NCBI GenBank assembly: GCA_963422645.2 | Contig: CAXXVO010000008.1 | Span: 192,001 to 256,000, forward strand | Source: Alphaproteobacteria bacterium | GTDB lineage: Bacteria > Pseudomonadota > Alphaproteobacteria > UBA828 | Length of the DNA: 64,000 nt | Reading direction: 5' to 3' | Shown: positions 47,040-56,582 of the stretch, in pieces | How positions within the stretch are numbered: position 1 is the stretch's first letter | Layout of the letters: every line of letters starts with the position of its first letter | The notes under the pieces: model-generated | Databases searched by the model: none | Seen by the model: only the letters and a program-made list of their open reading frames with translations | What the model was told of the DNA's origin: nothing | Made by a program: the position numbers and the translations under genes

Positions 47040-47361
47040 GTAACTACCCAGGTACCCCGCCGCCAGTTCTGAGTGCGTGCTGATGTTGCTTGCCGTCGGT
47101 GCCGTTTCGCCGTCGGCGCGTCGTTGATCCCCGCTTGACTGTATAGGTTCTCTCGCCTATGGGTTGCACTCTCGCATGAGAGGAGCAGCCGGTGGGGTAT
47201 TTCGGGTCGAAGGCGACGACCGGTCTGAGCCAGGCGCTGATTGCGCTGATGCCGCGGCACTCTGTCTATATCGAGAGCCATCTTGGGGGCGGGGCGCTGA
47301 TGAAGCGCAAGCCTGCGGCCATGCGCTCGATCGGGATCGACCGCGACGAGCGGGCGCTTGA

Positions 47362-49520
47362 CCCAGGTTGGCACTTTTTGTGTTCTGCTGTCGTTTATCG
47401 CTTTGATATGGCGCAATATTTTTCTCTGCCGATTCCAACATGGCACTACATTTTGTGAGATTCTGTCAGCTCGTCAGGCGGGTCCTCGTGCGGTGGATGG
47501 CGGGGTCAACACCCGCCGCCGAGGAGATTTGGGCGACCTCGGCGGCCGGGCGCGTGTCCTGGCGGTTGACGATCAAGGTGCCGTCGGTCTGGCGCAGTCG
47601 CGTGGTGATCCGCACCCAGGTCCGCATGCCCTCGCGGATCGATGCCCAGCACTTGTGGATGCCCCGCGCGGCCAGTCGGGTACGGATCAGATGCACGGCG
47701 TGATAGGCCAGCACGGCGATCAGCAGGTGGGCCGCGATGCGACGGTCGAGCTGGTGCCAGATCGGGCGAAGGCCGAGCTCGGATTTCAGGCTGCGGAAGG
47801 TGGCCTCGATGTCGGTGATGCGCCAGTAGGTCCGCAGGATCGTCTCGATATCCCAGTCGACGTGGCTGGTGCGCAGCACATAGGCGCCGGCGCCCTCGTC
47901 GGCCTCGTCGTATTGCGGCCTGCGCTTGAAGCGCACGGCGGCGGCGTTGGGGCCGGTTTTCGCCTTCTCGACCGTGACCTCGTAGTGTCTGGCGACGGTG
48001 GAGAAGCGCTGCTTGAGACGGCCAATGCTCTCCAGCACCCTGTCGTAGCGCTTGAGGCGGCCCTTGACCGGCAGGCCGCTATGGAGCCTTTCCAGCGCCG
48101 CCTCGAAGCGGTTCCGCCTGAGGCCGATGATCGCGTTCTCGGCCTTCTTCTTGCCCTCGCTGACGACGTAGAGCCGCGCCTCGCCGTCCTCGCTGGCAAG
48201 CCGCCAGGCGCGCACCTCGTGCCGCGCGCTGGTGATCAGCAGAGCCTCGGGCCCGCCCTCGGGCAGCGGCGGCCTGGCGCCGCGGCTGACCGCGATCCAG
48301 TCGTAGCCCTGCTCGCCCAGCCACGCGACGTTCTCCTCGGTGGCGATGCCCGCGTCCATGACCACCGTGGGCTTCGGCGCCGTGCCGCCGCACACCGCCT
48401 CGAGCCTGACCAGCGCGTCCTCCAGCGTGCCCGGCTCGCTCACGTTGCCCGGCAGGATCTCGCAACTGCGCGGGAAGCCTGCGCCGTCGAGCGCCAGCGC
48501 CAGCGTGATCAGCGGACAGTCGTCGCGCTTCTGCTTGGAGCGCCCGAACCTGGGAAGCTGGCCGTGGGTGTGGCCGTGGTAGTGGACATTGGTGAGATCG
48601 TAAAAGGCGATCGTTTCGGGCAGGTCGAGCAGCGCGCGCTCGCGGTTGAACAGCTCCCGCTGAATGGCGGCCCGGTGGCGCCAGAGCAGGTCGCCGATGC
48701 GGTAGAGCGTCTTGCGCCGCAGCGCCTTGCGGTCGCCCTCCAGCCCCAGGAGCTCGGCGGTCGCGCTGTCGCGGCGCAGCCAGCGGCTGGTGTCACGCTC
48801 GCTGGCGGGATGGACCATCCTGGCGACGATCAGCGCGCTGGCGATGCGCCCGTCGCGGCCCTTGATATCGAGGCCGTGGAGGATGTCGGCGAAGCCGAGG
48901 TCGTCGAGGGCCTTGAGGCACAGGCGCTCGCAGCCGACCGTGCGCGGGTTCTCGTGCTCCAGGGTATCGAGGTCGACGGTGGCGATGTCGGGCTTGCGCG
49001 CCTCTTCCTGTATCGCCTCGGGGCGGAACCCCCTGGCCCTGAGCTTGGCGACGATGTCCTCGGCTGCGGCCTGCACGTCCGGCGCGGCTTCGAGCAGCGG
49101 CGGGCGGCCGTTGAGCAGCGCCTCGGCGAGTCCGGCAACTTCGCGCCATTTCTCCTTCGGCACCGGATAGTCGGTGCCGAGGTTGAGAAGCGTGCGCTGC
49201 CTGACCTTGTCGCCGATGCGCTGCGAGAGCACGAGGCGATGGCTGCGGACCGGCTTGCCTTCGGTAGTGTGGGTCTTGGTTGCCCTGATGAACATGTCGC
49301 CCGGCACGTTTTGGTCGTGGCGGGTTCAGATATGTCGGCTTTGGTGGTGGGGTCAAGGGAAATCCTGCAAACCCACCATTCCCTGGCACTACAAAGGGAG
49401 TTCGAGACGGCAATCGCAAATGTAGGGGCGTGCCCTTCTCGTCAACGCTATATCTGGTGTGTCAGCCGGAAAAACCTGGCCAATTCGGCCCCGAACAAAC
49501 GGAAAAAGTGCCAACTTGGG
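47362..49520 (-). mobile_element. IS1634-family insertion sequence
   Basis: 18-bp IR CCCA(G/A)GTTGGCACTTTTT; TTGA duplicated at 47358-61 and 49521-24. Confidence 0.9.
47466..49295 (-). CDS. IS1634 transposase
   Basis: KVRQRTLLNLG, YDLTN, GRSKQKR.DCP, VMDAGIA, IEATFRSLKSELGLRPI.H. Confidence 0.92.
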   Translation of the reverse strand: MFIRATKTHTTEGKPVRSHRLVLSQRIGDKVRQRTLLNLGTDYPVPKEKWREVAGLAEALLNGRPPLLEAAPDVQAAAEDIVAKLRARGFRPEAIQEEARKPDIATVDLDTLEHENPRTVGCERLCLKALDDLGFADILHGLDIKGRDGRIASALIVARMVHPASERDTSRWLRRDSATAELLGLEGDRKALRRKTLYRIGDLLWRHRAAIQRELFNRERALLDLPETIAFYDLTNVHYHGHTHGQLPRFGRSKQKRDDCPLITLALALDGAGFPRSCEILPGNVSEPGTLEDALVRLEAVCGGTAPKPTVVMDAGIATEENVAWLGEQGYDWIAVSRGARPPLPEGGPEALLITSARHEVRAWRLASEDGEARLYVVSEGKKKAENAIIGLRRNRFEAALERLHSGLPVKGRLKRYDRVLESIGRLKQRFSTVARHYEVTVEKAKTGPNAAAVRFKRRPQYDEADEGAGAYVLRTSHVDWDIETILRTYWRITDIEATFRSLKSELGLRPIWHQLDRRIAAHLLIAVLAYHAVHLIRTRLAARGIHKCWASIREGMRTWVRITTRLRQTDGTLIVNRQDTRPAAEVAQISSAAGVDPAIHRTRTRLTS

Positions 49521-50019
49521 TTGAGGCCTTTGGCTGCGACTACCCGGTGGAGTTGGTGCCCGGCTGCGCCCATTCCTTCCTGGCCTCGTTCCCGTTTCTG
49601 GGCCCGGAGCTGGTCTACAGCGATCCGCCCTATCTGCACGCGACCCGGCGTTCGTCGCAGCGCTACCGCTTCGAGTACGAGGAGGCCGACCACGTCGCGC
49701 TCCTCGAACTGCTCAAGGGTCTGCCCTGCCAGGTGATGGTCTCGGGCCACCCGTCTGCGCTCTATGACGAGCTGCTGGCGGGCTGGCGCCGGCTGGCGCT
49801 GCAGGTGACGACCCAGGCCCAGGTGCGGACCGAGGTCGTGTGGTTCAACTTCGTGCCTGACCGGGTGCACTGGGCGAGCTTCGCCGGCCGGAACTTCACC
49901 GAGCGCCAGTGCATCAAGCGCAAGGCGGCCAACTGGGGCCGGCGCTACGAGGCCATGCCGGCGGGCGAACGCCTGGCGGTGCTGGCCGCGATCATGGCCG
50001 TCGAGGCCGACGAGGGTTC

Positions 50020-51561
50020 GTGACAGTGTCGCGCTGGCACGAGGACCTCGCTGCCCACGACGAGGCCTTCGCGTGCCTGCAGGACCTTTTCACCCCACAA
50101 TCCTTCGCAATGACCGCCGTCAAAGCCATTCGGGAATGGGGCCAGAGGTTGCTGCGCCTGAGCGCGGCCCTGGTCAAGGAGAACGACGCGCTGGAGCGGG
50201 AGAACGCCCGCTTGCGCGAGCGGATCGCCGAACTCGAGCGCAGCGCCGCGCTCGACAGCACCACCAGCTCCAAGCCGCCGGCCAGCGACGGTCTGAAGAA
50301 GAAGAGCGGTGACCGGGAGAAGCGCACCCGGAGCCAGCGCGGCAAGTCCGACAGGCCCAGTGGCGGCCAGCCGGGCCACAAGGGAACTACCCTGGAGCGG
50401 ACCGCGACGCCCGACCATGTCGTCGATCATGATCCGTCCGCCTGTGAGGGCTGCGGCGCGCCGCTGTCGGACGCTGACCGTCACGGAGCCCCCGTCTGCC
50501 GGCAGGTCTTCGATGTGCCCGAGCCGCAGCCCCTCGAGGTCACCGAACATCGCGGCCATCGTTGCCTCTGCGCTGCCTGCGGCACCGTGACGACAGCCGT
50601 CTTCCCGAACGGCGTGAGCGCACCGGTCCAATACGGGCCGCGCATCACCGCGTGGGTGACCTACCTGCTGCACGCTCAGTTCATTCCCGAGAAGCGGGTC
50701 GCCGAGGTCATGAGCGACCTCTTCGCGGTCAAGCTCTCAACAGCCACCATCGTCGCCATGGGAAGGCGCACCGCCCGGCGCTTCGAGGGCTTCCTCGATC
50801 GCCTCGCGGAGATCATCCGCACCGCAGCCCCAGTCAAACACCTCGACGAGACCGGCATCCGCATCGCCGCCCGGACCCATTGGCTCCATGTGCTGTGCAC
50901 CCCGTTGCTCACCATCCTGCGCGTCGCCACCGGGCGCAGCCACATCGACGAGAAGCTCAACGGCATCGTCATCCATGACGACTACGCCACCTACTTCGCT
51001 CTCGAGGGCGTGCGCCACGGGGCCTGCAACGCCCATCACCTGCGCGAGCTCCAAGCCCTCATCGAGATCGAGAAGGAAGACTGGGCAACGAGCACGCACC
51101 GGCTCCTCATCCGTGCCAACAGAGCCGCCCGCTTCGCCCACAAGAACGACCGCGACGTGCCCGCCTCACTGGTGGCCCGCATCTCGCGAGCCTGGGACCG
51201 CATCCTCGAACGTGCCATCGCCTCTCACGAAGAAATGCCACCGCTCCAGACCGGAAAGCGCGGACGACAAAAGCGCCGCATCGGTCACAACCTCGCCCTC
51301 CGACTCCAGAAGTACAAGGAGGGGTGCCTGCGCTTCCTCACCGATCCGCGAACCCCCTTCTCCAACAACGAGGCCGAGCGCGACCTCCGAATGGGCAAGC
51401 TGCGCCAGAAAATCTCAGGCGGCTTCCGCTCGATACAAGGCGCCCGCGACTTCGCAAACCTGCGATCCGTCATCGCCACCGCTCGAAAACAGCGCTGGAA
51501 TGTCCTCGAAACCCTGGCGCACCCCGATCCAATCCAGCTGATCCCCGTATTGCGCTTCTGA
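50020..51561 (+). CDS. IS66-family transposase (element A)
   Basis: Coiled coil, SSKPPASD, GGQPGHKG, CxxC pairs, DETG, CNAHHLREL, NNEAERDLR; GTG overlaps the MTase stop. Confidence 0.93.
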   Translation: MTVSRWHEDLAAHDEAFACLQDLFTPQSFAMTAVKAIREWGQRLLRLSAALVKENDALERENARLRERIAELERSAALDSTTSSKPPASDGLKKKSGDREKRTRSQRGKSDRPSGGQPGHKGTTLERTATPDHVVDHDPSACEGCGAPLSDADRHGAPVCRQVFDVPEPQPLEVTEHRGHRCLCAACGTVTTAVFPNGVSAPVQYGPRITAWVTYLLHAQFIPEKRVAEVMSDLFAVKLSTATIVAMGRRTARRFEGFLDRLAEIIRTAAPVKHLDETGIRIAARTHWLHVLCTPLLTILRVATGRSHIDEKLNGIVIHDDYATYFALEGVRHGACNAHHLRELQALIEIEKEDWATSTHRLLIRANRAARFAHKNDRDVPASLVARISRAWDRILERAIASHEEMPPLQTGKRGRQKRRIGHNLALRLQKYKEGCLRFLTDPRTPFSNNEAERDLRMGKLRQKISGGFRSIQGARDFANLRSVIATARKQRWNVLETLAHPDPIQLIPVLRF

Positions 51562-51996
51562 AATCCTGCGCTGCTCCGGGAAAGCGCCGCCTGACCCCTG
51601 GCTGGTCAGAACCATCAATCCATCACGTCCGAGTGCTCGGCAGAATCAGACCTGGGCAGTTACCATTGCTTGCGATATGGTCTCTCGCTCAGCCCCTGCC
51701 GCACACTCTTGAACTGAACAAACTGAAGACGTTACAACAGTTGCAATTGGCATCTTGCACGCATGGAGTCGTTCCATACTGTGAATACCTGCGCCTTATT
51801 TCCTCTCCGGCAATGGTGAACGCAGCCGAGAGGAGTCACCCGAGGGCCAATGCTAGGATGAGCTGGCGGCAATGTCTGAACTGCGATCCCATAGCCTCAA
51901 TACAGTATTTCTCGCAATGCTCTTTGGCTCTCTAGTACGAATTGCTCCATGGACGTACCATCTTAATGCAACCGCTGATCAGACAGGAAGCGCACA

Positions 51997-52136
51997 ATGA
52001 TGGACCTCATGCTTGACTTCTACCGCTTTTATGTACCACTCTTTAGTGCAGAAAAAGAGACTGAAAACTACTTCGCCTACAAAAGTATAGATGTTAAAGG
52101 CTTCAAGGGTCTAGATCATGTTTCTCTAAATTTTTC
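51997..52136 (+). pseudogene. N-terminal fragment of an OLD-like ATPase
   Basis: AT-rich; ...YKSIDVKGFKGLDHVSLNF matches the start of SMC/OLD-type ATPases; cut by the IR at 52137. Confidence 0.65.
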
Positions 52137-52381
52137 GTAACTGCCCAGGTCGTCTGATTTGTCATTTTGGGCCAGTGGATTGAGGCGTTTCTCGTTCGGA
52201 GTTGGTGGAAAGGGCTTGACGGGAATTTCGGGAAATGACGTAACTACCCAGGTACCCCAATCCTGAGTTGAGGACGGTGATTATGGCGGCGGCCGCGGCC
52301 TGGTTCTGCCACCGCGATTGGTTCTTGACCTCATAGAGTTGCGGGACTATGGACTGCTCTCTCGCGTGACGGGAGCGGTCC

Positions 52382-53047
52382 ATGGGGTATTTCGGCTCGA
52401 AGGCGACAGCAGGTCTGTGCCAAGCGCTGATTGCGCTGATGCCGCCGCACTCCGTCTACATCGAGAGCCACCTTGGGGGCGGGGCGCTGACGAAGCGCAA
52501 GCCGCCGGCCGTGCGTTCGATCGGCATCGACCGCGATGCGCAGGCGCTCGAGGCCTTCGTCTGCGACTACCCGGTCGATCTGGTTCACGGCTGTGCCCAT
52601 GACTTCCTGGCCTCGTTCCCGTTCCTGGGCCCGGAGCTGGTTTACAGCGATCCGCCCTATCTGCACGCGACCCGCCGCTCGGCGCAGCGCTACCGCTTCG
52701 AGTACGAGGAGGCCGGCCACGTCGCGCTTCTCGCGCTGCTCAAGGCTCTGCCCTGCCAGGTCATGATCTCGGGCCATCCGTCGGCGCTCTATGACGAGGT
52801 GCTGGCGGGATGGCGCCGGCTGGCGCTGCAGGTCACGACCCAGGGTCTGGTGCGAACCGAGGTCGTCTGGTTCAACTACGCCCCCGACCGGATGCATTGG
52901 GCCAGCCACGCAGGCCGGAACTTCACCGACCGCCAGCGCATCAAGCGCAAGGCAGCCAACTGGGGCCGGCGCTACCAGGCCTTGCCGCCGGGCGAACGCC
53001 TCGCCGTGCTCGCCGCCATGATGGCCGTCGAGGCCGAAGACACGTGA
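52382..53047 (+). CDS. Compact DNA adenine methyltransferase (221 aa)
   Basis: YFGSK, YIESHLGGGA (SAM-binding motif I), GIDRD, YSDPPY (motif IV), MISG. Confidence 0.88.
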   Translation: MGYFGSKATAGLCQALIALMPPHSVYIESHLGGGALTKRKPPAVRSIGIDRDAQALEAFVCDYPVDLVHGCAHDFLASFPFLGPELVYSDPPYLHATRRSAQRYRFEYEEAGHVALLALLKALPCQVMISGHPSALYDEVLAGWRRLALQVTTQGLVRTEVVWFNYAPDRMHWASHAGRNFTDRQRIKRKAANWGRRYQALPPGERLAVLAAMMAVEAEDT

Positions 53048-54582
53048 CGGTGTCGCACTGGCACGAAGACCTCGCCGCCCGTAACGAGGCCTTCTGCTGC
53101 CTGAAGGAGCTTCTCGAGCCATCATCCCTCGCAACCACTGTCGTCGTTGCCGTCCGGGAATGGGGGCAGGGGCTGCTGCGATCAGCCACCGCGCTCGCCC
53201 GGGAAAATGCCGCACTCGAGCAGGAGAACGCGGCCCTGCGCGAGCGCATCGCCGAACTCGAGCGCAGCGCGGCCCTCAACAGCACCACAAGCAGCAAGCC
53301 CCCCGCCAGCGACGGGCTCAAGAAGAAAAGCGGAGCCCAGAGGCGCACCCAAAGCCAGCGCGGAAAGTCCGGCGGGCCCAGTGGCGGCCAGCCCGGCCAC
53401 AAGGGAACCACCCTCGCGCGGAGCGACAGCCCGGACCGTGTCGTCGATCACCACCCCTCCACCTGTTCCGGCTGTGGCGTCGAGCTCTCGGACGCCGACC
53501 GGCAAGGCGCGCCCGCCTGTCGGCAGGTCTTCGACGTACCCGAGCCGCAGCCTCTCGAGGTCACCGAACACCGCGCCCATCGCTGCCTCTGCGGCGCATG
53601 CGGCACGCTGACACGAGCCGCCTTCCCGCCGGGCGTCACCGCCCCGGTCCAGTACGGCCCTCGCATCACCGCTTGGGTGAGTTACCTGCTGTACGCCCAG
53701 TTCGTGCCCGAGAAGCGTCTGGCCGAACTCATGAGCGACATCTTCGCGGTGTCCATCTCCACTGCCACGATCGCCGCCATGGGCCGGCGCACAGCGCAGC
53801 GCTTCGAGGGCTTCCTCGACCATGTCGCCGATCTGATCCGCACGCAGGCGCCGGTCAAGCACCTCGACGAGACCGGCCTGCGTATCGCCGCCCGTACCCG
53901 CTGGCTCCATGTGCTGTGCACCCCGTTGCTCACCGTCCTGCGCATCGGCGAGGGACGCGGCGATGTCGAAAAGAACCTGAAAGGCATCCTCGTCCACGAC
54001 GACTTCGCCCCCTACTTCACCATCAAGGGCGTCCGCCACGGCGCCTGCAACGCACATCACCTGCGCGAACTCCAGGCCCTGATCGACATCGAGAAGGAGG
54101 AATGGGCGGCGAGCATGCACCGCCTGCTTCAGCGCGCGCGCAGGGCCGCCCGCTTCGCCCGTGAGAAAGACCGTCAAGTCCCCGCCTCCCTGGTGGCCCG
54201 CATCTCAAGGGCATGGGACCGTATCCTCGAAGAAGCCATCGCCTTCCATGAGGCCCAACCGCCGCTCCAGATCGCAAAGCGAGGGCGAAAGAAACGCCGC
54301 ATCGGCCACAACCTCGCGCGCCGCCTTCAAAAGCATAAGGAGGGCTGCCTGCGCTTCCTCACCGACCTGCGCACGCCGTTCACGAATAACGAGGCGGAGC
54401 GTGACATCCGTATGAACAAAGTGCATGAGAAGATCTCAGGCGGCTTCCGCTCCCTGCAAGGCGCCTGCAACTTCGCCGGAATGCGCAGCGTCATCGTCAC
54501 CGCTCGAAAGCAAGGCTGGAACATCCTGCAAATCCTGGCGCACCCGGAACCGATGCAGCTGATCCCTATACTGCGCTCCTGA
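53044..54582 (+). CDS. IS66-family transposase (element B)
   Basis: Same motifs as the element A transposase (DETG, HDD, NNEAERD); GTGA overlap with the MTase. Confidence 0.93.
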   Translation: MTVSHWHEDLAARNEAFCCLKELLEPSSLATTVVVAVREWGQGLLRSATALARENAALEQENAALRERIAELERSAALNSTTSSKPPASDGLKKKSGAQRRTQSQRGKSGGPSGGQPGHKGTTLARSDSPDRVVDHHPSTCSGCGVELSDADRQGAPACRQVFDVPEPQPLEVTEHRAHRCLCGACGTLTRAAFPPGVTAPVQYGPRITAWVSYLLYAQFVPEKRLAELMSDIFAVSISTATIAAMGRRTAQRFEGFLDHVADLIRTQAPVKHLDETGLRIAARTRWLHVLCTPLLTVLRIGEGRGDVEKNLKGILVHDDFAPYFTIKGVRHGACNAHHLRELQALIDIEKEEWAASMHRLLQRARRAARFAREKDRQVPASLVARISRAWDRILEEAIAFHEAQPPLQIAKRGRKKRRIGHNLARRLQKHKEGCLRFLTDLRTPFTNNEAERDIRMNKVHEKISGGFRSLQGACNFAGMRSVIVTARKQGWNILQILAHPEPMQLIPILRS

Positions 54583-54766
54583 ACTTCTCCGGCTCATCCT
54601 GAGTATCGCTGTCCTCTCATCTTGTTCGCGACGCGGCGTTCATCATCCTCTCGCGCTCAAGAGAGTAGGCACCCCCGCGGCGTGGGGGCGTTGACGCAAA
54701 AGGAACTGGCTTGTTCCATAAGAGAGAGGGGGTACCTGGGCAGTTACGAAATGACTCAACAACGAC

Positions 54767-56273
54767 ATGAGCAATCCCGAGTCGCCGCGCGGCCCTTCGA
54801 CGGGAGCAGCGCCCGAAACGCCCGCGCAGAAGATCGCCCGCCTGGAGGAGGAGAACGCCCGGCTTCGGGAGGAAAATGCCTGGCTTCGGCAGCAGAACGC
54901 GCGGCTGGAAGAGCAAGTCGCGCGTCTCGTCGAGCGCATCGAGGAGTTGGAGCGCCGTCTCGGCCTCAACAGCGGCAACAGCGGCAAGCCGCCTTCGAGC
55001 GATGGGCTGAGGAAGCCGAATTCGAAGCGGCGAACCCGAAGCCTGCGCGGCAAATCGGGCCGCAAGCCCGGTGGCCAGCCCGGCCACAAGGGCAAGACGC
55101 TGCGCCGCGCCGATCACCCGGATCGGGTGAAGGATCACGTCCCGGCTTCCTGCAAGGGATGCGGTTCGCCGCTTTCGGACGCGGCCAGGGCGGGAACGCC
55201 CGTCGCCCGCCAGGTGTTCGATCTGCCCGAGCCGAGCCCCCTGGAGGTGACCGAGCACCGGGCGCATGCCAAGTGCTGCGGGCATTGCGGGACGGTGACC
55301 CGGGCGGCGTTCCCCGGCGGGGTGTCGGCGCCGGTGCAGTACGGCCCGCGCATTGCCGGGGTGGCGGTCTACCTTCAGCACGCTCACTTCCTGCCGGAGG
55401 ATCGGCTGTCGCAGGTGATGGCCGAGCTCTTCGGCGCGCCGGTGACGGCTGCGACGTTGGCGACGATGAGCGAGAGGGCGGCCGAGCGGCTGCGGGACGC
55501 GGCCTTGCACATACAGGACCTGGCGGCGGGCACGGCGCGGGTGAAACACATGGACGAGACCGGCTTGCGGATCGGCGGTCAGACGCAGTGGCTTCATGTG
55601 ATCTGCACGCCGCTGCTGGCGGCGTACCGGGTCAGCGGCAAGCGCGGCGCCCTGCTCTCGGGTGTCTCCGGCATCGTCGTGCACGATCACTGGAAGCCGT
55701 ACTTCGCGATGGAAGGGGTGGAGCACGGCCTGTGCAACGCCCATCACCTGCGGGAGTCAGCAGGCGCTGGTGGACATCGAAGGGGAGGCTTGGGCCCGGC
55801 GGATGCAGCAGCTCCTGCGCCGAGCCAATCGCGCCGCCCGCATCGCGCTGGACAAGGATATCGCCGTTCCGGCGAGGCTTGTGGCGCTGATCGAGCGCCG
55901 ATACGACGAGATCATCGCCGATGCGCTGGCCTTTCACGAGAGCCAACCACCGTTCTCGCCTGGCAAGAGGAAGAAGCGCCGGAAGCGAAGGATCGGTCAC
56001 AATCTGGCCTTGAGGCTGCGCGACCACAAATGCGCGGTGCTCCGGTTCCTGATCGACCTCGAGGTCGGGTTCACGAACAACGAGGCCGAGCGCGACCTTC
56101 GGATGATGAAGCTGCGCCAGAAGATCTCCGGGGGCTTCCGGTCCGCGCAGGGGGCCGAGAACTTCGCCATCCTGCGCAGCGTCATCACCACCGCCAGAAA
56201 GCAGGGCTGGAATATCATCGAAGCCCTGACCAGCCCATCGGATCGGCTCATCGCCACCGTCAAGTGCGCGTAA
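54767..56273 (+). pseudogene. IS66-family transposase (element C), frameshifted
   Basis: CNAHHLRE then a shift near 55757 into the QALVDIE...NNEAERDLR frame. Confidence 0.85.
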
Positions 56274-56582
56274 GCTCACCTGGCACGGGTTCTCCAACAG
56301 CGGAGCCATTCTCATAAACGATCATGGTCGACGCCGTGCTGGACCACCCCATAGAATGAAAATCGGTGCCCGTCGCGCGGGCGGACTTCGGGCCACATCG
56401 GGGTAGCTTACCGGTCGCAGTCCGCAAGAGGGGCATCGTGAGCTGTGAAACCCGGCGACCCCAGAGGAGCACACGGGCGTCGCGTGGGTAGCGTTGTGCC
56501 GAATCCCAGAGAATTTTCACAGCAAGAACCTGGGTAGTTACCTAGAGTCATCCCATTCAATAACGGCAATGCCGGTCCAAGC

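Follow-up and report, generated by a model that had tools for sequence, protein, structure and literature searches.

An insertion sequence with its own methylase gene

The DNA considered here is a window of 64,000 nt from an alphaproteobacterium of the UBA828 lineage (positions 192,001 to 256,000 of contig CAXXVO010000008.1, assembly GCA_963422645.2). Its positions 52240-54747 form a complete insertion sequence (IS) of the IS66 family, 2,508 bp in length, with two genes between its ends, i.e., a predicted DNA adenine methylase followed by a transposase (Table 1). A first-pass annotation of this DNA had described 19-bp inverted repeats (IRs) and an 8-bp target-site duplication around the gene pair as well as a GTGA overlap joining the two genes, and all of these features are indeed present. 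The reverse complement of the right repeat (IRR) agrees with the left one (IRL) at 18 of 19 positions, the sole mismatch being A/G at position 7, and the GTG start codon of the transposase at 53044 overlaps the TGA stop codon of the methylase (53045-53047) within a shared 4 nt. The transposase matches DDE_Tnp_IS66 (PF03050; 4.4e-41) and DUF6444 in Pfam, with zf-IS66 below its cut-off, and scores 289.7 bits on NCBIfam transpos_IS66 (NF033517; cut-off 180). Relatives at 36-48% identity that are annotated as IS66 family transposase occur on plasmids of Bacillus, Deinococcus, Nostoc, and others. All further listed open reading frames (ORFs) within the element overlap these two genes in other frames or on the other strand, in DNA of 66% G+C.

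The canonical three-gene form of IS66 carries tnpA and tnpB upstream of tnpC. The ORF list, Pfam, and NCBIfam revealed neither tnpA nor tnpB in the element, and the methylase is the only gene upstream of the transposase. With its one transposase gene, the element thus belongs to the single-transposase form of IS66, as is typical of the ISBst12 group. This group, like the ends and target duplication of IS66, was reportedly defined by Gourbeyre, Siguier and Chandler in 2010. The element has the 5'-GTAA ends and the 8-bp target duplication that are typical of IS66-type elements.

Table 1. Features of the methylase-bearing element and of the insertion sequences around it (window coordinates).
Feature	Position	Strand	Basis or remark
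Left target-site duplication copy GAAATGAC	52232-52239	.	identical 8 bp at 54748-54755
IRL GTAACTACCCAGGTACCCC	52240-52258	+	18/19 match to IRR
Promoter-like site of the methylase cassette	52325-52353	+	leader pattern; putative function
5'-leader hairpin core GCTCTC ... GGGAGC	52356-52376	+	fold and covariation count
Predicted orphan Dam-family (D12-class) N6-adenine methylase gene, 221 aa	52382-53047	+	profile, fold, motifs
IS66-family DDE transposase, 512 aa, GTG start	53044-54582	+	Pfam and NCBIfam
IRR	54729-54747	-	reverse complement compared with IRL
Right target-site duplication copy GAAATGAC	54748-54755	.	same as left copy
Type B element, diverged methylase-IS66 copy	47040-51663	+	methylase ~86% identical in protein; GTGA overlap kept
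2.16-kb IS with DDE_Tnp_1 transposase (47466-49307)	47361-49521	-	Pfam; within the type B methylase gene
Type C, methylase-less IS66 element, ends GTAACTGCCCAGGTC / GTAACTACCCAGGTT	52137-56541	+	own DNA 52137-52239 and 54748-56541

Copies and mobility in the home genome

Blastn searches of the home genome (5.9 Mb, 23 contigs) with the 2,508-bp element as query recovered 36 full-length copies at 99.64-100% identity, and this copy number rules out that the element is a chance arrangement. A perfect 8-bp duplication flanks 22 of the 36 copies, and these duplications all differ by site and are mostly A+T-rich. The remaining 14 lack such a duplication, including one pair (C6:391794 and C9:534228) with swapped flanks, as recombination between copies would produce. 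The element is thus an active, high-copy IS66-family insertion sequence. Because there are 36 full-length copies with their own duplications at 22 sites and the methylase gene lies inside the ends, it moves with the element as one unit, just as the first-pass annotation had proposed.

When gene copies were counted by blastn (at least 90% identity and at least 90% coverage), this element, which we call type A, accounted for 52 methylase and 44 transposase copies, while a diverged methylase-bearing type B contributed 26 and 24, respectively, so that the genome holds about 78 methylase genes in total. A tblastn search with the methylase gave 92 matches, 51 of which are full-length type A sequences at 97% identity or above with no stop codon (hand count from the tblastn table). 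Type C, an IS66 relative that has almost identical ends but no methylase, is present in 89 near-identical copies and thereby exceeds either methylase-bearing type, and an IS with a DDE_Tnp_1 transposase is found in 13 copies.

In many type A copies, an insert of 2.5-4.7 kb interrupts the element at position 2071-2076 (examples of broken or partial copies are G000:C5:530237-537426, C18:2912-7937, and C5:441324-441761), and at least 10 solo right-end pieces of 438 bp (element positions 2071-2508, 100% identical) are scattered over the genome. The breaks may reflect an insertion hot spot in the 3' part of the transposase gene or a chimeric derivative. Another type A derivative (G000:C6:265597-266811) has kept positions 1-1031 and 2328-2508 and lost most of the transposase gene; it is a non-autonomous copy that still carries the methylase. 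The public runs X1-X8 (four organisms, five studies) each contain 80-97% of the element's sampled 31-mers, and a run labelled as sponge metagenome contains 18% of them.

A predicted Dam-family core with a different DNA-reading part

The methylase displays an LGGG motif I near residue 31 and a DPPY motif at residues 90-93 (52649-52660), i.e., the order of an FxGxG-like AdoMet motif I followed by the catalytic DPPY that marks the D12 class. All 40 aligned relatives share the residues G32, D90, P91, P92, R98, H113, S130, G178, and R184. A profile made from these relatives matches DpnM (4.4e-9) and E. coli Dam (1.2e-5), 34 of the 40 match PF02086 (E <= 0.01), and the window methylase itself matches a PHROG family named "DNA methyltransferase" (4.8e-17); a phmmer search with it against the PDB gave no match. 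Its AlphaFold model (pLDDT 91) consists of a Rossmann-type core with the long C-terminal helices 181-199 and 203-220 behind it, and the top Foldseek matches of this model are Dam, DpnM, and Mcbe1 at a TM of ~0.5. Motifs, profile, and fold thus agree in predicting a Dam-family (D12) catalytic core.

The profile alignment spans only motif I and then motif IV onward, skipping the recognition domain of ca. 110 residues in Dam and DpnM. Along DpnM, the aligned chain jumps from residue 74 to 183 while the query merely proceeds from 62 to 80, and a Dam-type target-recognition domain is hence absent between motifs I and IV. Judging from the predicted structure, the DNA-reading part probably differs from that of Dam and lies at the C-terminus. 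M.EcoGII was considered as an analogue lacking a recognition domain and dropped, given that it is listed as a beta-class enzyme.

The wider methylase family comprises 5,554 representative clusters at E <= 0.001. Homologues at 46-56% identity occur on plasmids, where 134 of 196 matching records are typed as conjugative and some are annotated as "upf31.0 putative site-specific DNA methyltransferase", and further homologues are found on P2-like phages. In the records that we opened, these plasmid and phage homologues are backbone genes and not IS genes. The transposase of an IS1380-like element (ISSp1) next to a 51%-identical plasmid methylase represents an independent insertion since both occur apart on other plasmids.

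The methylase precedes a transposase in genomes and metagenomes

Linkage was assessed for the clade of methylase relatives at about 64% identity or above. Matches in genome contigs amounted to 142 stretches, 80 of which were kept as loci. Among metagenome contigs, 597 stretches matched, of which 559 encode a relative; we retained 80 as loci and left out seven of these that break off less than 700 nt from the methylase and show no transposase match. In all 153 informative loci (80 genome and 73 metagenome loci), a transposase lies just downstream of the methylase on the same strand, with 141 loci of IS66-type, 10 of IS701-type, and two IS66-type remnants. The methylase overlaps the transposase start or sits within about 130 nt of it. 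The position upstream of the transposase with a 4-nt overlap, noted in the first-pass annotation for this one copy, recurs in 10 of 10 close IS66-type relatives with a complete transposase ORF and also in the IS701-type locus L087.

An IS66-family match follows directly downstream in 69 of the 80 genome loci, while eight encode an IS701-family transposase (L070, L071, L073-L076, L087, and L088). In L080, a truncated IS66 transposase directly follows the methylase, as seen in its metagenome twin L107, and L066 and L069 consist of an IS66-type left end and the methylase with the remainder lost. The 73 metagenome loci comprise 71 of IS66-type and two of IS701-type (L179 and its broken relative L170). 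A tblastn panel served to type 67 of them, Pfam was used for L162 and L178, L154 was typed as IS66 solely by its likeness to L150, and L116 is a disrupted IS66-type locus.

Other candidate carriers did not hold up. The IS1634 transposase in L116 (NF033559, 249 bits) suggested a third carrier family but belongs to a nested insertion, and we count this locus as IS66-type because the first codons of the IS66 transposase (by comparison with L120) and the upstream IS66-type end remain. The same IS1634-family element sits within the 5' part of the IS66 transposase gene at two different points in L116 and L120. Regarding an IS630 after the methylase in L066, the sequence shared with L069 stops ~26 nt past the methylase, in line with both loci being remnants, and an IS91-type gene in L080 lies 1.6 kb downstream, beyond the truncated IS66 transposase. 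Likewise, an N-terminal extension of the transposase was not accepted as a trait peculiar to methylase-linked elements, given that type C has an N-terminal region of similar length (by eye).

The GTAAC... ends recur in relatives from other genomes, with 8-bp duplications found directly in L012, L051, and L056 and after register correction in L013. The IS701-type carriers are 2.5-2.8 kb long and have IRs GCTCGACTTTGT... and 3-bp TNA duplications that enclose the methylase. Their copies at different sites are 99.0-99.9% identical (99.5-99.9% for 2.78-kb copies with IRs GCTCGACTTTGTACA...), and the L070 transposase scores 309.1 bits on NF049999 (cut-off 170). These carriers are thus genuine mobile units, and their GCTCGAC... 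ends are unrelated to the GTAAC... ends of the IS66-type.

Cassette exchange, selection, and distribution

Nucleotide similarity between the element and the IS701-type L070 is restricted to element positions 86-809, i.e., from 57 nt before the ATG through the methylase stop codon. The methylases of this window and L090 are 69% identical, while their IS66 transposases share 31% over 320 aa. Similarly, the methylases of L070 and L179 are 71% identical, compared to 25% over 163 aa for their IS701-family transposases. Across seven pairs, the methylase has a dN/dS of 0.13-0.24 and the transposase one of 0.24-0.34, and by this estimate purifying selection acts on the methylase no less strongly than on the transposase. 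This gap is less than twofold and too small for the gap in identity, which is more simply explained if IS lineages have exchanged the cassette. The lower dN/dS and the same position and strand in 153 of 153 loci uphold the view that the methylase is more than a casual passenger. From these comparisons, we regard it as a portable module heading very distant IS66- and IS701-family elements in many phyla.

A tree built from 113 clade members and five outgroups shows the clade as one branch (SH-aLRT 99%) on which IS701-linked methylases appear in three places (two changes). We do not claim that they are polyphyletic because an AU test fails to reject a single origin (p = 0.18), and we therefore claim at least one transfer between the IS66 and IS701 families and no exact number.

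The clade has a patchy distribution. None of 400 sampled genomes of the same phylum encodes a member at E <= 1e-60, and three of 20 genomes of the same genus do so with 1, 2, and 16 matches. Titles of records with clade members at 66-92% identity refer to Pseudomonadota, Chloroflexota, Planctomycetota, Acidobacteriota, Bacillota, Binatia, Tectimicrobiota, and a candidate-phylum bacterium, i.e., eight phyla or candidate phyla, a breadth to be taken as an upper estimate given that binning can misplace short IS contigs.

Control signals of the cassette

The promoter-like site upstream of the methylase is composed of TTGAC (52325-52329), a 17-nt spacer, and TATGGA (52348-52353), over which the palindrome CATAG (52332-52336) - N10 - CTATG (52347-52351) covers spacer and -10. 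The same leader (TTGAC, 3-4 nt, (C)ATAG, about 10 nt, CTATG) is found in all contexts. Out of 103 unique leaders, 92 match a loose TT[GT][AG]C-N3-5-TAG-N9-12-CTAT pattern and 85 a strict one, compared to none of 2,060 shuffled sequences. The -10 lies 17 nt from the -35 and is TATGGA here and TATGCT in A+T-richer relatives. Promoter spacers are not normally conserved, and the left half-site of the palindrome sits in the spacer between -35 and -10.

An ACATAG-N10-CTATGCT palindrome with further CTAT/ATAG repeats also precedes a 56%-identical plasmid methylase that is not part of any IS, and the palindrome therefore belongs to the methylase gene and not to the IS. It is not found before the homologues of a Sphingobium plasmid and of phage SEN5. 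The region in question (L180:2400-2500, on Xanthomonas oryzae plasmid pCIX2779_1) contains that palindrome, a second GACTATGCTGCAGG repeat, and a CTAT-N8-ATAG palindrome, and by its sequence looks like an operator array for this methylase family.

Downstream of the promoter-like site, the minimum-energy fold of 52342-52384 has -23.3 kcal/mol (z = -3.5), and the 3' arm of this hairpin holds a Shine-Dalgarno-like GGGAG 6 nt before the methylase ATG. Most of 24 singly folded leaders form a hairpin between -10 and ATG with GGAG or GGA in the 3' arm (by eye), even though the stem sequence varies by group (GCUCUC/GGGAGC vs. GAUCCAA/UUGGAUC). In 58 distinct A+T-richer leaders, 83% of the cells of a hand-named helix pair, compared to 23-54% when the helix is slid, and 46 cells are doubly changed, compared to 20 +/- 4 in shuffles (reached in 0 of 500). 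This count leans towards the named structure because the hairpin was hand-named from single-sequence folds, and RNAalifold predicted no pairs on MAFFT alignments of the leaders. A transcript starting ca. 7 nt after the -10 would begin within the 5' arm of the hairpin.

Regarding possible target motifs, GATC first occurs at position 280 of the element and last at position 2322, so that the outer 279 nt on the left and 186 nt on the right are free of it. A search by eye for a motif common to the ends yielded GTAC/GGTACC for this element and L070 and was abandoned because L087, L086, and L089 do not share it. GANTC, the site of CcrM, does not occur in the 2,508-bp type A element, compared to 4.6 expected from the genome-wide rate (type B: 2 vs. 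4.5; type C: 3 vs. 3.3), a weak signal from one of several motifs that were tried.

A nest of insertion sequences in the window

The element is part of a nest of five IS copies at 47040-56541, with a 473-bp spacer between type B and type C. The type B methylase gene is interrupted at 47360/49522 by the DDE_Tnp_1 IS, whose 24-nt inverted repeats lie at 47361-47384 and 49498-49521. Type C served as host of the type A insertion and has its own transposase at 54767-56317. No target duplications are present at the outer ends of the window's type B and type C elements, which suggests rearrangement between copies. The type C transposase of the window reads as a 516-aa frame and a second ORF (55662-56273). 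Of 89 type C copies, 47 have a 501-aa ORF and are 1 nt shorter, so that either a 1-nt indel or an assembly error must be present in the copy of the window.

A proposed role in expression control and its rivals

We favor, with modest confidence, the explanation that the self-contained methylase cassette heading this insertion sequence acts as a governor of its expression. The specific mechanism is a more tentative proposal, clearly less secure than this broad reading, and would involve three steps. First, the methylase would methylate or bind the palindrome over the -10 and in this way control its own operon. A copy that enters a naive cell unmethylated, or that has just been replicated, would fire until methylase accumulated from all copies shuts the operon down in trans, much as Dam controls IS10, IS50, and IS903 but in portable form. 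Read-in transcripts with both hairpin arms would stay untranslated, while transcripts from the cassette promoter would start inside the 5' arm and be translated. The 4-nt overlap suggests that the transposase would in turn depend on the cassette promoter and on translation of the methylase. Finally, such a module would work in any host so that unrelated ISs picking it up could spread widely. In its full form, i.e., a portable epigenetic governor acquired by unrelated DDE ISs with the methylase as off-switch in trans, replication or arrival as on-switch, and sensing of its own copy number, this proposal is possible but in our view doubtful. The first-pass annotation had suggested three roles, all of them hypothetical, namely that the element shields itself from restriction, regulates its own ends or promoter, or rewrites host methylation. 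Regulation via the ends looks unlikely because IS66-type and IS701-type carriers have unrelated ends, and the cassette promoter is the better-supported version of the second idea.

Several observations weigh against a governor. The window methylase matches no Pfam family and scores only 21.1 bits on TIGR00571 (dam), below its cut-off of 114.85. The loose leader pattern is missed by 11 of 103 leaders, a simple scan for sigma-70 consensus promoters made no call at the cassette site, and only the left half of the palindrome needs a special explanation given that its right half is the -10 hexamer. The AU test result means that the three places of IS701-linked methylases on the tree could go back to a single event. 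Type C is the most abundant IS66 element of this genome without any methylase, so this gene is not needed in cis for expansion, and any repression fails to hold copy number down despite the ca. 78 methylase genes in the genome. Finally, the occurrence of homologues on conjugative plasmids and P2-like phages suggests that the gene originally served restriction evasion.

Restriction evasion is also the main rival for the present role, one that we consider possible but less likely than the governor. The methylase would modify all DNA of the carrier cell so that any departing plasmid, phage, or free DNA is already protected in its next host, and the IS would gain by horizontal spread with no more than co-expression behind the link to the transposase. 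This agrees with the nearest relatives outside the IS clade being carried by mostly conjugative plasmids and by P2-like phages, and the occurrence of a patchy clade in many phyla at 66-92% identity fits frequent transfer, although part of that breadth may be a binning artefact of mis-assigned short IS contigs. However, a pure passenger would have no reason always to take first place in the orientation of the transposase and to overlap its start or lie within ~130 nt of it, nor would it require an IS-style hairpin over its start site. A single specificity guards against no more than one restriction enzyme. Both readings could hold at once, and we favor the governor.

It is rather improbable that the methylase is the plain passenger of an ordinary transporter IS, captured once or a few times and with no part in the control of transposition, that is kept for host benefit or for the broad-host promoter and start site it offers the transposase. 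Transporter ISs are a recognized class (IS1595 and IS66 families) with a methylase passenger cited for IS220, and both the success of methylase-less type C and the single origin allowed by the AU test would be compatible with this idea. Yet a role limited to the promoter should have let the ORF decay, whereas dN/dS is 0.13-0.24, the catalytic residues are invariant in 40 of 40 relatives, and 51 full-length type A matches are free of stop codons. We give hardly any credence to the methylase being an obligate cofactor, i.e., that the transposase needs methylated DNA or the methylase protein to act on the ends. The tight translational coupling and the strength of selection on the methylase, at least equal to that on the transposase, would suit such a cofactor, but its carriers belong to two transposase families with unrelated ends and the 89 type C copies lack the gene, unless types A and B supply it in trans.

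Implications and relation to known systems

ISs are usually viewed as relying on host factors such as Dam for their control, and an IS that carries the methylase itself could be controlled independently of its host. If true, this could help explain bursts upon arrival in a new cell, later quiescence, and a wide host range. That one cassette recurs before very different transposases clearly illustrates how IS families exchange modules. As a marker, the cassette identifies at least 559 metagenome and 142 genome stretches in which the gene is annotated as "DNA adenine methylase" or "hypothetical protein" with no note of its IS membership. With ca. 78 gene copies, the predicted enzyme could dominate the methylome of the cell, which would matter for methylation-based binning and for restriction barriers in host communities.

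The first-pass annotation had put the novelty of this element too high, since ISs with passenger genes, methylases included, are already a named category. "Transporter ISs" with passenger genes have been described for the IS1595 and IS66 families (bioRxiv 10.1101/2021.05.26.445724), and IS220 of the IS1380 family is cited as an example with a methylase passenger (PMC11891212). We did not find in the literature one conserved, apparently self-regulated methylase cassette that heads distant IS66 and IS701 elements and exceeds their transposases in conservation, and our search, with ISfinder, TnCentral, and REBASE outside its scope, returned no paper on a methylase-IS66 or methylase-IS701 module. 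Transporter ISs such as IS220 share with our element an IS size, bounding IRs and duplications, and a non-transposition gene. The element likewise holds such a gene inside its IRs and moves it along, although it is questionable whether the methylase is truly unrelated to transposition. The differences are that a single conserved cassette is found in two unrelated transposase families, always first and co-oriented, and that the methylase is more conserved than the linked transposases.

The single-gene (ISBst12-like) members of IS66 have the same DDE_Tnp_IS66/zf-IS66/DUF6444 transposase, GTAA ends, and 8-bp duplication without tnpA/tnpB; what sets this element apart is an extra first gene, the methylase, which is coupled to the transposase and has a control region of its own. 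The orphan Dam-like methylases of plasmids (upf31.0) and P2-like phages belong to the same family at 46-56% identity with the same short architecture and conserved C-terminal helices, and one plasmid gene even has the promoter palindrome of the cassette, but they are backbone genes without a linked transposase.

Protection of IS10 and IS50 from outside transcription is known as "fold-back inhibition". As in these elements, a leader hairpin pairs the ribosome-binding site, with its 5' arm at or upstream of the expected transcript start. Here, however, the hairpin would guard the start of the methylase and, via coupling, also the transposase.

Adenine methylation by Dam at the transposase promoters of IS10, IS50, and IS903 ties expression to replication (PMC9296519). 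Our element has a counterpart in the Dam-family gene and the promoter-overlapping palindrome ahead of its transposase, for which regulation is proposed by analogy. GATC is found neither in the ends nor in the promoter, so any analogous mechanism may use another motif. While IS10, IS50, and IS903 depend on host Dam and GATC, the enzyme would here be brought along by the IS itself.

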